IMG/VR virus record: IMGVR_UViG_3300037294_000405
Span: 1 to 64,000 of that record
Source of the DNA: a virus
Strand: one strand, 5' to 3'
DNA: 64,000 bases
Part shown: positions 11,748 through 25,799 of the stretch, one piece after another
Layout: each line of letters opens with the position of its first letter
Position numbering within the stretch: the stretch's first letter is position 1
The notes under the pieces: model-generated
Databases searched by the model: none
The model's input: the letters and a program-made list of their open reading frames with translations, nothing else
What the model was told of the DNA's origin: nothing
Program-made: the position numbers and the translations under genes

Positions 11748-12392
11748 ATGAAAAAAATTTTATTATTAGCCACAACACTAATTCCTTTAATGTTAGTAGC
11801 ACAAACAATTATAACAGACAATAAATTAACCATCCCACATGGTGATATTACTTTGTATCTAACAAAAGACACATGTGCTTTAGCCTCTAAACATGTAATA
11901 ACTTATTCTGAGTTTTTAAAATTAGATAAAGAACGAGACAATAGATGGTTTCAAGATACCTACAAAGGAAAATACACAAAAGATTCTTATTTAAGAACTG
12001 GTTATGATATTGGACACTTAACACCGTCACATATTACTTCTTATGATAACGACTTAAGCCATAGGTCTTTTAGCTTATTTAATGCAGCGCCACAACTAGC
12101 GGCTTTTAATAGAGGCAAATGGGCCCAAATGGAACGTTCTGTTGAAGATTCTATAGCCAAGTATAAGAAAGACGCAATTATCGTCACAGGAGTCATATAT
12201 GACGGTAAAAAGACTACGTACATGGGTAAATCAAAAATACCAATTCCTATATCATTCTTTAAAGTCGTTTATATTGATGAAAAAGTATTCTGTTGGTTTG
12301 GTTCTAATATAAATGGATTAATAATCAAAACTACCGTAAAAGAATTAAATGAGATATTCAAATTAAATAAAATGACACTTAAAATATATTAA
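11748..12392 (+). CDS. DNA/RNA non-specific endonuclease (NucA/EndA-like) with N-terminal signal peptide
   Basis: GYDIGHLTP, NAAPQLAAFNRGKWAQME, VTGVIY, IPISFFKV motifs; MKKILLLATTLIPLMLVA leader. Confidence 0.88.
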   Translation: MKKILLLATTLIPLMLVAQTIITDNKLTIPHGDITLYLTKDTCALASKHVITYSEFLKLDKERDNRWFQDTYKGKYTKDSYLRTGYDIGHLTPSHITSYDNDLSHRSFSLFNAAPQLAAFNRGKWAQMERSVEDSIAKYKKDAIIVTGVIYDGKKTTYMGKSKIPIPISFFKVVYIDEKVFCWFGSNINGLIIKTTVKELNEIFKLNKMTLKIY

Positions 12393-12394
12393 AT

Positions 12395-12426
12395 AAAAAA
12401 AGCCTAGAATTACCTAGGCTTTTTTT
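12395..12426. terminator. Bidirectional intrinsic terminator
   Basis: AAAAAAAGCCTAG-AATTAC-CTAGGCTTTTTTT. Confidence 0.9.
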
Positions 12427-12427
12427 A

Positions 12428-12439
12428 TTACGTTAACTC
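12428..12439 (+). repeat. Left arm of 12-bp inverted repeat TTACGTTAACTC (partner at 14309-14320)
   Basis: Exact reverse complement of GAGTTAACGTAA at 14309-14320. Confidence 0.8.
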
Positions 12440-12450
12440 TTATATTTTAT

Positions 12451-12480
12451 TTAAGCTTTTGTACCACAGCTAGAACAGAA
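12451..12480 (-). pseudogene. Orphaned former 3' end of the 13309-14217 gene (FCSSCGTKA*)
   Basis: Translates FCSSCGTKA-stop versus current end FCSQCAKKV-stop. Confidence 0.75.
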
Positions 12481-12526
12481 CATAAGTCTTTTTTAAAATA
12501 TCATGATATTTATAATAAAACAAAAT

Positions 12527-13312
12527 ATGAAATACCAATATAATTTAACAGCTTTTGAAAAAATAAATGAAGATTCAGCCTATTTCTTAGGTTTACTATA
12601 TGCTGATGGTAATCTAAGTGATAAAGGTCGTATTACGTTAAACCAATCAATTAAAGATATTGATATTGTAGAAAAATTTAAAACATTTTTAGGGACAAAT
12701 AAACCAATTAGAGTAGTTGAAGTAACTAATTCAGTCTCATTTAGTTTTCAAAATAAAATGATAACAAAACAATTAATAAATCTTGGGTTGGAGCCTAGAA
12801 AATCATTAACACTTAAATTTCCAATGTTCATAAAAAAAATTTATTTAAAAGATTTTATTCGAGGATATTTTGATGGTGATGGTTGTGTTTCTTTAACTAA
12901 AAACAAAACAACTTCTAACCTTAGAATACATTTAGTTGGAACTTATGATATGTTATTTAATATAAAAAAATATTTAACAGATGTATTATCAATTAATGAT
13001 AGAAAAATAAATCAAATAACGATTGGTAAAAATACTTTTCAATTAGAAATAACAAAAAAACTTGATGTTCAAAACATTAAAGATTTATTGTATAATAATT
13101 CAAAATATTTTTTATCTCGTAAAAGAAATATTTTTTTTACAAATATTAATAATAACAATGAAGATTGTTCATTAAGTTCGAAATATAAAAATATTTGTTA
13201 TAGAGAAAAAAGAAAAAGATGGAGAGCGACTTATTATCTTAATAATATTAGAAAAGAAAAAAGCTTCAAACATGAAATTGAAGCTTTTAATTTTCTTGAA
13301 TCTTTAGACTAA
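12527..13312 (+). CDS. Free-standing LAGLIDADG homing endonuclease with C-terminal AP2-like domain
   Basis: AYFLGLLYADG and FIRGYFDGDG; C-terminal SKYKNICYREKRKRWRA; start chosen at 12527 because an ATATTTAT motif lies at 12506-12513. Confidence 0.88.
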   Translation: MKYQYNLTAFEKINEDSAYFLGLLYADGNLSDKGRITLNQSIKDIDIVEKFKTFLGTNKPIRVVEVTNSVSFSFQNKMITKQLINLGLEPRKSLTLKFPMFIKKIYLKDFIRGYFDGDGCVSLTKNKTTSNLRIHLVGTYDMLFNIKKYLTDVLSINDRKINQITIGKNTFQLEITKKLDVQNIKDLLYNNSKYFLSRKRNIFFTNINNNNEDCSLSSKYKNICYREKRKRWRATYYLNNIRKEKSFKHEIEAFNFLESLD

Positions 13313-14217
13313 ACTTTTTTAGCACACTGACTACAGAATTTATGTCCTTTACCTAATTTGGCACCACAGTTTGTACAGTAAACCTTTACGTTTAAATCTT
13401 CGACTGTGTTTATTTTTTGTGATACTGGAAGAAGTTTATATTCTACCACATGGAAAGCAAAGTATTCAAAATCTTTGTTTACCGTTTTAAATTTTTGGTC
13501 AGAACCAGAACCTTGTTCAACTCTGCCCGTTTCAATTGTTTTTGTTGAACGAGTAATACTAGATAATGTATTTAACTTACTTTTTTTGACAGGTTCAGTT
13601 CTTTGTGTGTAAGTTACATCACCTAGACCTAACGAATCCATCGTGGCAATACTTGAACTATAAAGAGCTGTTGACCCTATAGAATTACTACTTGATGAAG
13701 TAAAAGTATTTGTACAACCAACATTAGTACTTGTAGTGCCGTGAATATAACCACCAGTGTTAGTAATCCATGTTGGCCCACCGAATGAACCGCTTGTAGC
13801 GCTACCTCCTTGTAGTGTTAGTATACCACCATAGTATTGTGGTGCTCTTTCCTTAAAAAATTCTACCTTAACGTCACCATTGTTTTCTATGGCTTTTTTT
13901 ACTTCGCTAGTGTTTGATACTTCGTAAGTATCAAATAAGAATTTTTTACCCACGTCTAAGTAACGGTCTAAGAATATTCTTTCACCAGGATTTAACACCA
14001 ACCCACCTTGAGATAAGGCTTTGTTATTTAATGTGATTTTTGCCAACACAACTTCTTTTGTTGGGTTAAAGATTTCAATTTGGAACTCTTGTCCGCTTTG
14101 AAGATAATAAGATGGCATTTCACCTTTTGTGTTGTAGACTTTTATTCTACTTTTGTTTACAGCAATGTTTGCTGTTGGTACCGTTTGAGACGGACCACTA
14201 ATCATTTGTTTTTTCAT
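13309..14217 (-). CDS. Hypothetical protein with C-terminal zinc ribbon
   Basis: YCTNCG...FCSQC; Ser/Thr/Gly-rich linker. Confidence 0.85.
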   Translation of the reverse strand: MKKQMISGPSQTVPTANIAVNKSRIKVYNTKGEMPSYYLQSGQEFQIEIFNPTKEVVLAKITLNNKALSQGGLVLNPGERIFLDRYLDVGKKFLFDTYEVSNTSEVKKAIENNGDVKVEFFKERAPQYYGGILTLQGGSATSGSFGGPTWITNTGGYIHGTTSTNVGCTNTFTSSSSNSIGSTALYSSSIATMDSLGLGDVTYTQRTEPVKKSKLNTLSSITRSTKTIETGRVEQGSGSDQKFKTVNKDFEYFAFHVVEYKLLPVSQKINTVEDLNVKVYCTNCGAKLGKGHKFCSQCAKKV

Positions 14218-14232
14218 TTTTTTAACTTTTAA

Positions 14233-14320
14233 TAGTTGTTATTATCGTACCAATTTCTTTGTTGCCTTAACAACTCTAAAGTCAAATTTGACTCGAAACC
14301 GATAACGTGAGTTAACGTAA
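14233..14320 (-). promoter_or_regulatory. Structured 5' leader (candidate cis-regulatory RNA), beginning with the right arm of the 12-bp inverted repeat
   Basis: Stems UAUCGGUUUC/GAAAUUGGUA, GAGUCAA/UUGACUU, GUUGU/GCAAC; alternative helix AGUUGUUA/UAACAACU; ATATTTAT motif at 14323-14330. Confidence 0.5.
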
Positions 14321-14357
14321 ATATAAATATACTAAAATAATTTTTTTTGTCAAGCTT

Positions 14358-23825: not shown

Positions 23826-25799
23826 CTATTTTTTTTTAAAAAAGTTTAAAAAACTAAATAAACCAGATTCTTTAATGATTCTATTTGATGGTGGTTTTGG
23901 TACCGTAATTTTTTTGTAGTCTTTATGTTCAAAAATGTTTATAAAATATTTTGTTAACCTATGTCTAACAACTTCATTTTCAGTAAATTCAACTACATTA
24001 ACACCTTCTTCTGGGTGTAATTTAGCCATTCTGACTAACTCACCTAAACAACTAGATTCTGGTTTTTTTAAATCTACTTGATTGCTATCACCTAGAGCTA
24101 TCACTTTGGTGTTTTCAGAGAAACGAGTAAGAAGCGTTTTTCCGTTGTTATCGGTAACGTTTTGAAATTCATCAAATAAAACTATGCAGTTTGATAGTGA
24201 CCTACCACGAATAGAACCAAAAACCTCCATTTTAATGTAACCAGCTTCTAATAATTTATTTGTAAGTTCTTCACCAATTAGTTTATAAAAAGCGTCAAAG
24301 AAAGACATCATAATAAATTTTAATTTATCTCTTTCATCACCAGGTAAAGTACCTAAATCCTCATCTTTAAGTTGAACGATTGATTTAACTAGTTTAATTT
24401 CATAATAAATTTCTGGGTTAGTTTTTAATAAGATTAACGCCTCAGCAACACTTAATAAGGTGTTATGCGTTACAATACAATCATTTGTTAAATATAAATG
24501 GTTTTCGTCATTTACAGAAATACATTGAGCCTTTTTCTTACCTATTAGTTCAACATTTTTAATATACCGAATAGGAAAATATTTAACTCTTTGTTTCATT
24601 AGATTTATTTTCCTATCTAATTTAAATGGTATTACCCCTAGTGGTAAGTTAATATGTAGCGAATAAATAACCTTACATTCTTTTACCTCACCATTTAGTT
24701 TTCTATATTTACCTATTTTTTGTGTTTTTTTAACTATACCACCAAGTGATTGTACTATAAAGGTTACTCCATCTATTAACTTCTCAGAAGTAGAATAGAA
24801 TAACGGTGTACCAGTTTTTGTATCCACGGAACCATCAGTGTCTAATAACCCCCTTAAAATTTCTAATCTAGTGTTAGTATCGTTAATTAGATATTCTTCT
24901 GGAATGAATTTGTATGAAGAAGTTAATCCAAATAAATTAACTTCACGTAAATACTCTGTTATATCATTTTTTTTAACCCCAACCGACTTTATAATATAAT
25001 TTTGACCATATTTTTCTTTTAGAATATGATTTTTTGGTAAAATATTAGAAATCGTTTCAACAATTTGTACATCATTTGTTGTTAAGGATATTGCTGGTGT
25101 GGTAAAACCACCATCACCTAATAAACAACCTAATAAATAAGGGTCAATAGTAACTTCTTTGGTTTTAAATTCAATTTGTTTAACAATTGGAATTGAGTGA
25201 TTGACTTTTTGTGATTTTTTACCAACAACTAACGAATTCATAATATCAATCGTATTTCTAACTGAACCTTTATTTGGATTTTTACCGATATAAATACGTT
25301 TCCCATTATCATCAGTTACTCTTTTACGTTTATTCCTCTCTTCATAGGTTTGAGTAAACCATAAATGTTCACCACAACACTCAGTTTGTGTTCCATCTGA
25401 AAAAGAAATTAAATAAATTTCTTTTTCACCTTGTGGGTAAACACCATCTACTAATATAGGGGTACCATTAACCCCAATAACCTCATCACCTACATTAATA
25501 TCACACATTTTAACATACCCTTTTGGGGTTAAAATTAATGAATCAAGTGGTTGGGCTTTACCAGTACCAGCTGGGCCAGTACAAATAGTTACATCACCAT
25601 TTTTGATTGATTGGGTGAGTTTTTTCTGAACTTCATTCTTATGTTTTAAATCTATTTTTATCTGACTAAGTAAATCTTGTTTTATGTGTGCCGAAGAAAC
25701 AATTTCTTTAGTTTCTGTTTTTTTAGTTCTAGTGGTTCTAGTGGTTCTAGCTGATTTAGCAGCAGTTGTTTTTAATGGTGTTGAAACTTTTCTTGACAT
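23826..25799 (-). CDS. phoH: PhoH-like ATPase containing an intein
   Basis: GPAGTGK|T, LGTLPGD, IRGRSL, DEFQN, GDSNQVDL, VVRH. Confidence 0.93.
   Translation of the reverse strand: MSRKVSTPLKTTAAKSARTTRTTRTKKTETKEIVSSAHIKQDLLSQIKIDLKHKNEVQKKLTQSIKNGDVTICTGPAGTGKAQPLDSLILTPKGYVKMCDINVGDEVIGVNGTPILVDGVYPQGEKEIYLISFSDGTQTECCGEHLWFTQTYEERNKRKRVTDDNGKRIYIGKNPNKGSVRNTIDIMNSLVVGKKSQKVNHSIPIVKQIEFKTKEVTIDPYLLGCLLGDGGFTTPAISLTTNDVQIVETISNILPKNHILKEKYGQNYIIKSVGVKKNDITEYLREVNLFGLTSSYKFIPEEYLINDTNTRLEILRGLLDTDGSVDTKTGTPLFYSTSEKLIDGVTFIVQSLGGIVKKTQKIGKYRKLNGEVKECKVIYSLHINLPLGVIPFKLDRKINLMKQRVKYFPIRYIKNVELIGKKKAQCISVNDENHLYLTNDCIVTHNTLLSVAEALILLKTNPEIYYEIKLVKSIVQLKDEDLGTLPGDERDKLKFIMMSFFDAFYKLIGEELTNKLLEAGYIKMEVFGSIRGRSLSNCIVLFDEFQNVTDNNGKTLLTRFSENTKVIALGDSNQVDLKKPESSCLGELVRMAKLHPEEGVNVVEFTENEVVRHRLTKYFINIFEHKDYKKITVPKPPSNRIIKESGLFSFLNFFKKK
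24462..25556 (-). mobile_element. Class-3-type intein (365 aa, LAGLIDADG) in the PhoH P-loop
   Basis: Starts AQPLDS right after GTGK; EHLW, AQCISV, IVTHN|T; LLGCLLGDG and LRGLLDTDG. Confidence 0.92.

Follow-up and report, generated by a model that had tools for sequence, protein, structure and literature searches.

Covariation points to a helix joining the two ends of a zinc-ribbon protein mRNA in large Bacteroidota-type phages

Two copies of a 12-nt inverted repeat lie on either side of a zinc-ribbon protein gene in a large phage genome, and we hold with high confidence that they form a selected RNA end-to-end helix, here called P0. The pattern of compensatory change among homologous loci shows that P0 is maintained by selection for pairing of the sense-strand RNA in a wide clade of large Bacteroidota-type phages. 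As an overall explanation we lean, at somewhat better than even odds, toward an end-to-end helix on a late mRNA that would protect the ends of the message and control its decay. The window referred to below is the whole stretch of DNA analyzed, 64,000 nt corresponding to positions 1 to 64,000 of virus record IMGVR_UViG_3300037294_000405; the record itself is 155 kb long and 44% complete.

Results

Position of the repeat relative to promoter and terminator

The elements of the locus are the following, in the order of the minus strand:

14326 to 14353, minus strand: promoter, consisting of TTGACA (14353-14348), a 16-nt spacer and TATATT (14331-14326), 11/12 match
14309 to 14320, minus strand: 5' arm (TTACGTTAACTC) of P0, the closing helix, identified by covariation with the 3' arm
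14246 to 14307, minus strand: structured leader, in which helix P1 closes around hairpins P2 and P3 (compensatory pairs, co-fold)
14218 to 14245, minus strand: translation initiation region, A-rich and unstructured, without a Shine-Dalgarno sequence, holding the AAAGUUAA box (14231-14224)
13309 to 14217, minus strand: gene for a 302-aa zinc-ribbon protein (PF13240, AF2 model, homologues in Lak megaphages)
13259 to 13288, minus strand: T-run hairpin of the cassette, situated within the convergent endonuclease ORF at its 3' end
12503 to 13312, plus strand: gene for a homing endonuclease (LAGLIDADG and AP2) of 269 aa, in convergent orientation to the zinc-ribbon gene
12451 to 12480, minus strand: native 3' end of the zinc-ribbon gene, left as an orphan (FCSSCGTKA-stop) and identical to the end of the functional gene at locus L001
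12428 to 12439, minus strand: 3' arm (GAGTTAACGTAA) of P0, the closing helix, identified by covariation with the 5' arm
12383 to 12429, minus strand: predicted native intrinsic terminator, with A-tract, GCCTAGG stem and U-tract (A-tract hairpin 12429-12392)

The 5' arm (14320-14309) starts 2 nt past the ATATTTAT motif (14330-14323), the 3' arm (12439-12428) is its exact complement at 12 of 12 positions, and the terminator lies 1 nt further on; in these positions and spacings the sequence agrees with the original prediction. ATATTTAT belongs to the TTGACA-16-TATATT promoter match (14353-14326, 11/12 positions), and the TATATTTAT motif, which runs to 14323, is conserved in nearly all homologous loci. 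By promoter-motif prediction, the 5' arm thus sits at, or within 1-2 nt of, the transcription start. The exact repeat contains the palindromic core GTTAAC, and the two arms are the only copies of the 12-mer in the 155-kb record.

A 12-nt inverted repeat is not significant by itself, because such pairs are common (93 exact 12-mer inverted pairs lie within 2.5 kb of each other in the window) and the motif, allowing up to two mismatches, occurs at chance frequency. Promoter-anchored and terminator-anchored scans of the 155-kb record, which asked whether late genes of this phage carry such pairs generally, likewise found 10-13-nt matches elsewhere only at chance level; one other motif-adjacent pair, at 24719/29594 on the plus strand, was rejected as antisense to six minus-strand genes. 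These counts are what a chance match in AT-rich DNA would predict, but dozens of loci conserve P0 with compensatory change, which refutes that reading and leaves it next to no probability. It is the placement of the repeat, together with its conservation by compensatory change in the relatives that we compared, that lifts it above chance.

P0 is conserved and covaries across homologous loci

We assembled 45 distinct insertion-free homologous loci, among which there are 34 different arm pairs, and in each searched for the longest ungapped helix that the 5' region could form with the initial 45-50 nt past the stop codon. This search replaced RNAduplex comparison of the flanks, which gave spurious A/U pairing. 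At insertion-bearing loci, chance helices rich in G.U overwhelmed a search for the best helix across 3.5 kb, which was repeated with a narrow 5' region. A megablast of the region against GenBank phages gave no match.

Across the 45 insertion-free loci, P0 joins the first bases of the transcript to the 3' UTR at constant places. The helix is mostly perfect and measures 10-16 bp in 41 of the 45 and 7-9 bp in the other four, three of which have only 7 bp. In 30 of 41 loci it begins 4-5 nt past TATATTT. It ends 1-4 nt upstream of the three-helix leader (1 nt in the window), while the 3' arm falls 4-16 nt past the stop codon in the relatives and is separated from the terminator hairpin by 0-5 nt in 39 of 41 loci and by 10 nt in two. 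The relatives L001-L004, whose proteins are 78-81% identical to that of the window and which have no endonuclease gene, present the simple arrangement of gene end, 11 nt, 3' arm and terminator, with the same arms as the window.

Covariation was evident by several measures. In the whole-gene alignment, which includes divergent clades misaligned by MAFFT, 79% of cells were paired, compared with 24-38% when the partner was slid; two-sided changes numbered 66 (in 10 of 14 pairs), compared with 9-26; and the covariation score was 0.235, compared with at most 0.116 for slid partners and with no value as high in 500 shuffles. The longest Watson-Crick helix between cognate arms averaged 11.7 bp, against 8.0 bp for non-cognate partners and 6.2 bp for shuffled sequences. 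Mapped on the protein tree, the 14 pairs underwent about 35 pair-state changes, some 26 of them two-sided. With dozens of independent compensatory changes across the clade, the existence of P0 is hardly in doubt. The prediction that covarying terminal repeats would be found around homologues of 13309-14217 was thus borne out in the relatives, and so was the proposed pairing of the 5' and 3' mRNA ends as a closing stem, since the covarying complementarity comes with G.U wobbles on the sense strand.

P0 has limits within the wider group. It is not evident in Lak-A1, Lak-B4, Lak-C1 or LR756504, where the leader is recognizable. In the L058-L063 clade the terminator hairpin is weak or absent and no canonical terminator follows the arm. 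In L058, L059, L063 and L066 the 3' arm starts just 4 nt past the stop codon; terminating ribosomes should melt an arm so close to the stop, and a simple static cap fits these loci less well.

The wobble pairs also bear on whether the repeats act as DNA, either as recombinase inversion sites, which had been offered as an alternative to RNA pairing, or as paired protein sites looping promoter to terminator. An exact inverted repeat with a palindromic core would suit such a role, and two sites could also stay alike through arm-arm recombination or by co-evolving with a protein. However, interior non-Watson-Crick pairs comprise five G.U on the coding strand against one A.C in a doubtful extension, and all five break DNA identity while preserving coding-strand RNA pairing. 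The inverted orientation occurs in none of the 45 insertion-free assemblies, where the order is always motif, arm, leader, gene, arm, and the 34 arm variants stand beside a well conserved protein set. Twelve base pairs is short for inversion or binding sites, and the palindrome covers only 6 bp against 10-16 bp of complementarity between the sites. Profile searches of the 155-kb, 44% complete record (Resolvase, Phage_integrase) found no resolvase/invertase or tyrosine recombinase. We regard the DNA-level reading as already largely refuted and very improbable. The same record contains no match to RVT_1, in keeping with the earlier remark, made for the window, that neither a recombinase nor a reverse transcriptase is present. 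The suggested likeness to retron a1/a2 repeats fails on this account and because the arms enclose a protein-coding mRNA: retron repeats enclose a non-coding RNA of about 150-250 nt, whereas the arms of P0 enclose a leader and a 302-codon gene, about 1 kb in all.

P0 is predicted to stack on the terminator and to coexist with a structured leader

In folds of full-length transcripts (~1 kb) from five diverse loci, P0 was part of the minimum-energy structure, with pair probabilities of 0.95-0.98; the arm duplex has a predicted energy of -14.3 kcal/mol. In the co-fold, P0, the leader and the terminator coexist and the initiation region stays unpaired, and the prediction for the window has the native terminator stacked right against the outer end of P0, with zero unpaired bases between them.

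This geometry is relevant to a role in processing, in which P0 and the terminator stem would together offer a duplex to RNase III or another nuclease that trims transcript ends, as at the 16S and 23S rRNA stems. The selected helix does enclose a whole functional RNA, and P0 (10-16 bp) with the abutting terminator stem (13-17 bp including its A:U tracts) would give a quasi-continuous helix of about 25-30 bp. Moreover, no terminator precedes the promoter, so transcripts of the upstream 467-aa gene could run on into this one, and an internal 5' arm could then mark a cut site. Bacterial RNase III usually needs roughly 20 bp, and internal loops are typical of phage RNase III sites. P0 alone, however, falls below the ~20-bp duplex of RNase III stems, stacking on the terminator being needed to reach about 25-30 bp, and its helices are mostly perfect, without internal loops. 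Because P0 begins at the predicted transcript start, there is also little 5' sequence to trim, and no phage RNase III was found in the 155-kb record (44% complete). We therefore judge a processing stem unlikely.

The leader is itself conserved: of its 19 predicted pairs, 15 show compensatory changes and almost none is broken among 48 sequences. Rfam covariance models run against the leader and the 3' UTR returned only sub-threshold, terminator-like matches (E 0.12-0.61). Downstream of the leader, most loci conserve the AAAGUUAA box, 9-14 nt ahead of the AUG. The box matches the core of the 3' arm exactly and is complementary to UUAACU of the 5' arm, and it is not a general initiation motif in this genome, where it precedes 2 of 137 ORFs.

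These properties of the box raise the possibility that P0 controls translation. In the switch version, the 5' arm would first pair with the AAAGUUAA box and be freed once the 3' arm is transcribed; alternatively, proximity of stop and start could recycle ribosomes. The conservation, rarity and arm complementarity of the box speak for a switch, the stop codon is merely 4-16 nt from the 3' arm, and pairing between 5' and 3' UTRs is able to control translation in Staphylococcus aureus icaR (PMC3868564). Yet the box can form only 6-7 AU-rich base pairs with the 5' arm, some 100 nt separate P0 from the AUG, and the initiation region is free in the co-fold, the opposite of icaR, where the Shine-Dalgarno sequence is covered. 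Since the box does not covary with the arm in the clades with a different helix core (L050, L058-L063, L066), we keep the switch as a minor rival, and control of translation in either form seems to us improbable.

The protein encoded between the arms consists of an N-terminal beta-sandwich, a disordered linker (residues 130-223) and a C-terminal zinc ribbon, and the AF2 model is confident only for the beta-sandwich and the zinc ribbon. A Foldseek search of the PDB with this model gave nothing significant, BFVD yielded one phage homologue plus low-TM matches to uncharacterized giant-virus proteins, and the only ESM Atlas matches were zinc-ribbon clusters of viral hypothetical proteins.

An endonuclease cassette separates the gene from the 3' arm in the window

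The original prediction held that the repeat brackets a whole transcription unit. This is true of the relatives without an endonuclease gene, but in the window the hairpin terminator of the cassette intervenes: between the arms lie the zinc-ribbon gene on the minus strand, the convergent endonuclease gene on the plus strand and an internal T-run hairpin, which do not make one simple unit. The endonuclease gene is absent from L001-L004. The cassette is 92% identical to that of L032, whose host gene is only 74% identical to the gene in the window. The last eight codons of the window gene (13332-13309) are a surrogate end from the cassette; the gene ends in FCSQCAKKV-stop, where relatives end in FCSSCGTKA-stop.

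The cassette entered the last codons of the gene and supplied both a surrogate gene end and a hairpin terminator of its own, interrupting the ancestral arrangement; the native end of the gene now lies 870 nt further downstream, together with the 3' arm and the terminator. The cassette hairpin, identical in L032 and similar in L025, is likely the terminator of the invaded gene. In folding predictions, the 5' arm was unpaired in an RNA ending at this hairpin and paired at 0.90 in read-through RNA. With the cassette and its hairpin standing between the coding sequence and the 3' arm, only read-through transcripts can form P0, which in the window is probably a recent relic or only partly working. 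None of the invaded alleles (the window, L025, L032, L028 and L046) has a replacement 3' arm before the new terminator, which argues that closure is dispensable, at least in the short term.

Homing endonuclease cassettes carrying a spare end of the gene they invade are reportedly known from yeast, as the WHO elements at FBA1. The window resembles them in that the endonuclease sits in the last codons, a surrogate 3' end is supplied and the native end is orphaned. The comparison concerns only the insertion that splits the helix, not the helix.

Discussion

The closest known case to P0 is the hbs mRNA of Bacillus subtilis, in which a 14-bp duplex of the 5' UTR with the 3' UTR, just upstream of the terminator and verified by compensatory mutants, restrains RNase Y cleavage and stabilizes the primary transcript (PMC5737220; Braun, Durand & Condon 2017). 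Both pairings show full complementarity (12-16 bp for P0, 14 bp in hbs) with the 3' arm by the terminator, and both are found on a short, monocistronic, highly expressed mRNA with a structured leader. They differ in that the 5' arm of P0 lies at the extreme 5' end, upstream of the leader, whereas the hbs arm is downstream of hp2 and overlaps the cleavage site, and P0 belongs to a phage mRNA of unrelated sequence in another host phylum. The support also differs in kind, being phylogenetic for P0 (about 26 natural compensatory events) and from engineered mutants for hbs.

By this analogy and from the geometry of the locus, we propose, as about an even call, that the main role of P0 is protection from decay. 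P0 would pair the first nucleotides of a monocistronic late mRNA, whose product is a conserved beta-sandwich/zinc-ribbon protein of huge phages, with the 3' UTR just ahead of the intrinsic terminator. Once formed, it would bury the 5' triphosphate end in a duplex stacked on the terminator, and both RNA ends and the leader would make one compact junction. Such a junction should keep nucleases from entering the leader, whether they depend on the 5' end or cut endonucleolytically, as in hbs, and a heavily expressed message would be stabilized, or have its decay timed, by closure.

A bolder version follows from the stacking of P0 on the A:U-extended terminator stem, which would leave the end nucleotides facing each other as at a helix nick and make the message a pseudo-circle. 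It could then be a prokaryotic-virus counterpart of the eukaryotic closed loop, with the nick sealed into a circular mRNA, or with a factor from phage or host (the zinc-ribbon protein, perhaps, together with the leader) that reads the junction and licenses translation or ribosome recycling only on full-length RNA. We think this quite improbable. Neither an RNA ligase nor RtcB was found in the 155-kb record (44% complete). If it were true, the endonuclease-invaded alleles would be natural loss-of-closure mutants.

Other end pairings share single features with P0. The 5'-terminal stem-loops of the Escherichia coli ompA leader and similar leaders stabilize mRNA against 5'-end-dependent nucleases; the 5' terminus is paired there too, but those hairpins are local, whereas the partner strand of P0 is about 1 kb away in the 3' UTR. 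Like the 16S/23S rRNA stems and T7 RNase III sites, the arms of P0 are long-distance complementary flanks around a functional RNA, yet those stems exceed about 20 bp and serve as RNase III cleavage sites, whereas P0 has 10-16 bp, starts at the predicted transcription start and surrounds an mRNA. The cyclization sequences or panhandles of flaviviruses and bunyaviruses likewise show covarying end-to-end complementarity of a viral RNA, but as replication signals of RNA genomes, whereas P0 is on the mRNA of a dsDNA phage. To our knowledge, only a handful of cases of long-range UTR-UTR pairing in bacterial mRNA have been described, each demonstrated by mutagenesis in a single species. In S. aureus icaR, the 3' UTR pairs with the Shine-Dalgarno region, blocks translation and creates an RNase III site (PMC3868564; Ruiz de los Mozos et al. 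2013). P0 is like icaR in pairing the UTRs of one mRNA and unlike it in that the extreme 5' end is paired and the initiation region is free.

The clade that carries P0 comprises large and huge phages and reaches the Lak megaphage lineage. On this evidence, closing the whole message is a device available to phages, employed along with an undescribed structured leader in at least one gene that is conserved and strongly expressed. The endonuclease cassette, by uncoupling the 3' arm, provides a natural experiment in which alleles with and without the endonuclease are directly comparable. Both mRNA decay and Shine-Dalgarno-free initiation are poorly understood in Bacteroidota, and P0 offers a defined system there for the effects of end pairing on decay, processing or translation.

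Arrangement of the zinc-ribbon locus

The original prediction held that a 12-bp inverted repeat brackets a whole transcription unit. The two 12-mers, TTACGTTAACTC and GAGTTAACGTAA, are exact reverse complements and lie, to the base, where they had been placed, between a promoter whose hexamers match at 11 of 12 positions and a terminator.

Features of the zinc-ribbon locus in the window
14353-14348, - strand: promoter hexamer TTGACA
14331-14326, - strand: TATATT, 16 nt downstream of TTGACA, inside the motif TATATTTAT
14320-14309, - strand: 5' arm, TTACGTTAACTC
between 5' arm and 302-codon gene, - strand: leader of ~90 nt, structured part at 14246-14307
14217-13309, - strand: 302-codon gene (zinc ribbon)
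13288-13259: second hairpin with T-run, directly past the zinc-ribbon stop codon, within the tail of the endonuclease ORF
12503-13312, + strand: endonuclease ORF
12480-12451, - strand: short orphan reading frame, ...FCSSCGTKA then stop
12439-12428, - strand: 3' arm, GAGTTAACGTAA
12429-12392, - strand: A-tract hairpin terminator, 1 nt past the 3' arm

The enclosure thus stands, but in place of one simple unit it comprises two convergent genes plus an internal hairpin that resembles a terminator. Each arm is the sole copy of its 12-mer in the 155-kb virus record. Since 93 exact 12-mer inverted pairs no more than 2.5 kb apart are present in the window, and near-matches to the arm motif occur at chance frequency, a 12-nt repeat by itself means little.

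Adjacent to the native terminator lie genes for a DNA/RNA non-specific endonuclease (PF01223; 11748-12392, + strand), with an N-terminal hydrophobic stretch that by eye resembles a signal peptide, and for a small winged-helix protein (PF14090; 11443-11676, - strand). The terminator (12392-12429) also serves the nuclease gene, in an arrangement reported as head-to-tail, and probably works bidirectionally.

In the 302-aa product, a disordered linker joins an N-terminal beta-sandwich to a C-terminal zinc ribbon (PF13240); no informative structural neighbours were found. Our IMG/VR scan yielded 71 homologous loci (37-81% identity). The gene copy at L060:2487-3397 carries two in-frame stop codons and has intact arms; it may be a pseudogene, or the result of a frameshift or a faulty assembly. 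The Prevotella Lak megaphages and other uncultured phages of 460-735 kb encode homologues with 31-37% identity to the product, placing the record (44% complete by CheckV) among large Bacteroidota-type phages, in a clade related to the huge members of that group. The A-rich, Shine-Dalgarno-free initiation region fits this placement.

The arms covary among homologous loci

Covarying terminal repeats were found around homologues of the zinc-ribbon gene: the arms vary and complementarity is kept within every locus, giving 34 distinct pairs. The 5' arm variants include TAACGTTAACTC, ATGTGTTAACTC, TATATACGTTAACTC, TGCGTTAACT, GTTATGGTTAAC, TTACGTTAACAA, TACATTAGCTCAAGT, ATATAGTTAACTA, AACGTGATTAAACTAG and AGACCTTGTGGTT. 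For a 14-pair helix, the actual placement was compared with displacements of 1-3 columns in an alignment of the whole gene from 45 distinct insertion-free loci; the most divergent rows of that alignment are misaligned, which makes the counts conservative. As placed, 79% of cells were paired (24-38% when displaced), with 66 two-sided changes (9-26) and a covariation score of 0.235 (at most 0.116); none of 500 shuffles matched these values. The longest Watson-Crick helix averaged 11.7 bp between cognate arms, against 8.0 bp for non-cognate and 6.2 bp for shuffled arms. On a maximum-likelihood protein tree, at least ~35 paired-state changes are required over the 14 pairs, ~26 of them two-sided.

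The end pairing is present in the huge-phage sequence LR756500, and none that was convincing was seen in Lak-A1, Lak-B4, Lak-C1 or LR756504. The LR756500 locus has pairings at ~490-510 and 1412-1445 in non-nested order, the second overlapping leader helix P1, and these must therefore be alternatives or a pseudoknot. Within the 155-kb record, the arrangement occurs at the zinc-ribbon gene alone.

Evidence for pairing in RNA

Two readings had been offered: that the mRNA ends pair, perhaps as in retrons, or that the repeats are DNA inversion sites. Departures from Watson-Crick pairing inside the helices comprise five G.U pairs at five positions in five lineages, all of them G.U on the coding strand, and two more terminal G.U pairs occur in L039 and L045; the single A.C pair is confined to a doubtful helix extension. 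Under mere DNA identity, transitions would give A.C as often as G.U, and the bias thus points to pairing in the sense transcript. None of the 45 insertion-free loci carries an inverted gene segment, and the 155-kb record (44% complete) contains neither a recombinase nor a reverse transcriptase. The inversion and retron readings were therefore set aside, while pairing of the mRNA ends is upheld by the covariation and the G.U bias. It is very probable that a selected end-to-end RNA helix exists.

In 30 of 41 loci the helix starts 4-5 nt past TATATTT (1-9 nt over all loci), close to where transcription is predicted to begin. The 3' arm starts 4-16 nt past the stop codon; its end is 0-5 nt short of the terminator hairpin, A:U extension included, in 39 of 41 loci. 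Co-folding of the window's 5' region and native 3' UTR gave three elements at once, namely closing helix, leader and terminator (gain about -14 kcal/mol), with zero unpaired bases between closing helix and terminator stem, a stacking that would juxtapose the 5' and 3' termini. When full 1-kb transcripts from five diverse loci were folded without constraint, the minimum-energy structure contained the helix, whose pair probability was 0.95-0.98. One clade (L058, L059 and L061-L063) has the longest closing helix, 14-16 bp, beginning 4-8 nt past the stop codon; past its 3' arm there is only a U-rich stretch and no canonical terminator hairpin, and here the 3' end might be set or protected by the long-range pairing itself.

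The leader (14246-14307, - strand) follows the 5' arm directly and folds into P1 enclosing P2 and P3; compensatory changes support 15 of 19 predicted pairs among 48 sequences, with almost none broken. Recognisable in Lak megaphages and LR7565xx huge phages and without a match in Rfam, it has the look of a distinct RNA motif not described before. A conserved AAAGUUAA box (14224-14231, - strand), 9-14 nt ahead of the AUG, is identical to the 3'-arm core and complementary to the 5' arm, for which it could compete. In this genome it is no general initiation motif (2 of 137 ORFs), and in clades with another helix core it showed no covariation.

A homing endonuclease gene separates the arms

The plus-strand ORF (12503-13312) encodes a LAGLIDADG endonuclease with an AP2 DNA-binding domain. 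The four closest relatives, L001-L004, lack it: TTACGTTAACTC lies downstream of the promoter motif as in the window, and the gene end ...FCSSCGTKA is followed after the stop by 11 nt, GAGTTAACGTAA and the terminator, identifying the orphan frame of the window as the native gene end. The cassette thus supplied eight surrogate codons (SQCAKKV and stop) and a hairpin of its own.

The last codons of the gene (window 12440-13340, both strands) are a repeated insertion site, with a LAGLIDADG/AP2 cassette in the window, L032 (92% identical) and L025 (73%), and insertions of other kinds in L028 and L046. Every insertion comes with a substitute end for the gene, so that the native end, together with 3' arm and terminator, is orphaned 870-1200 nt downstream; in L025, L028, L032 and L046 too, the orphan gene end precedes a 3' arm complementary to the locus's own 5' arm, then a terminator. 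Cassette and last ~230 nt of the gene are 92% identical to L032, whereas the remaining gene is only 74% identical, a contrast that indicates recent lateral homing, the ~230 nt looking like a co-conversion tract.

In folds of the window, the 5' arm of an RNA that stops at the cassette hairpin stays unpaired except for a 4-bp local stem, while a 1.9-kb read-through RNA, antisense to the endonuclease gene, closes with a probability of 0.90. No substitute arm was found within the cassette. The helix of the window is either a recent relic or functional only on read-through transcripts.

Significance of end-to-end closure

The closest described case is the B. subtilis hbs mRNA, in which 14 nt of the 5' UTR pair with a sequence immediately before the terminator. 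Single and compensatory mutants showed that this duplex limits cleavage by RNase Y and makes the primary transcript more stable (PMC5737220). In S. aureus icaR mRNA, a second case, 5'/3'-UTR pairing affects translation and RNase III (PMC3868564). The phage helix resembles that of hbs in length and 3' placement, but it lies right at the 5' end, occurs in phages, and is supported by compensatory changes that are natural rather than engineered. No description of this helix was found in the literature searched. Most likely, the helix would shield both ends and the leader from decay; processing and translational control rank below this role. In the invaded alleles, nature provides loss-of-closure variants, and these suggest that the role of closure is to modulate expression and that it can be dispensed with.
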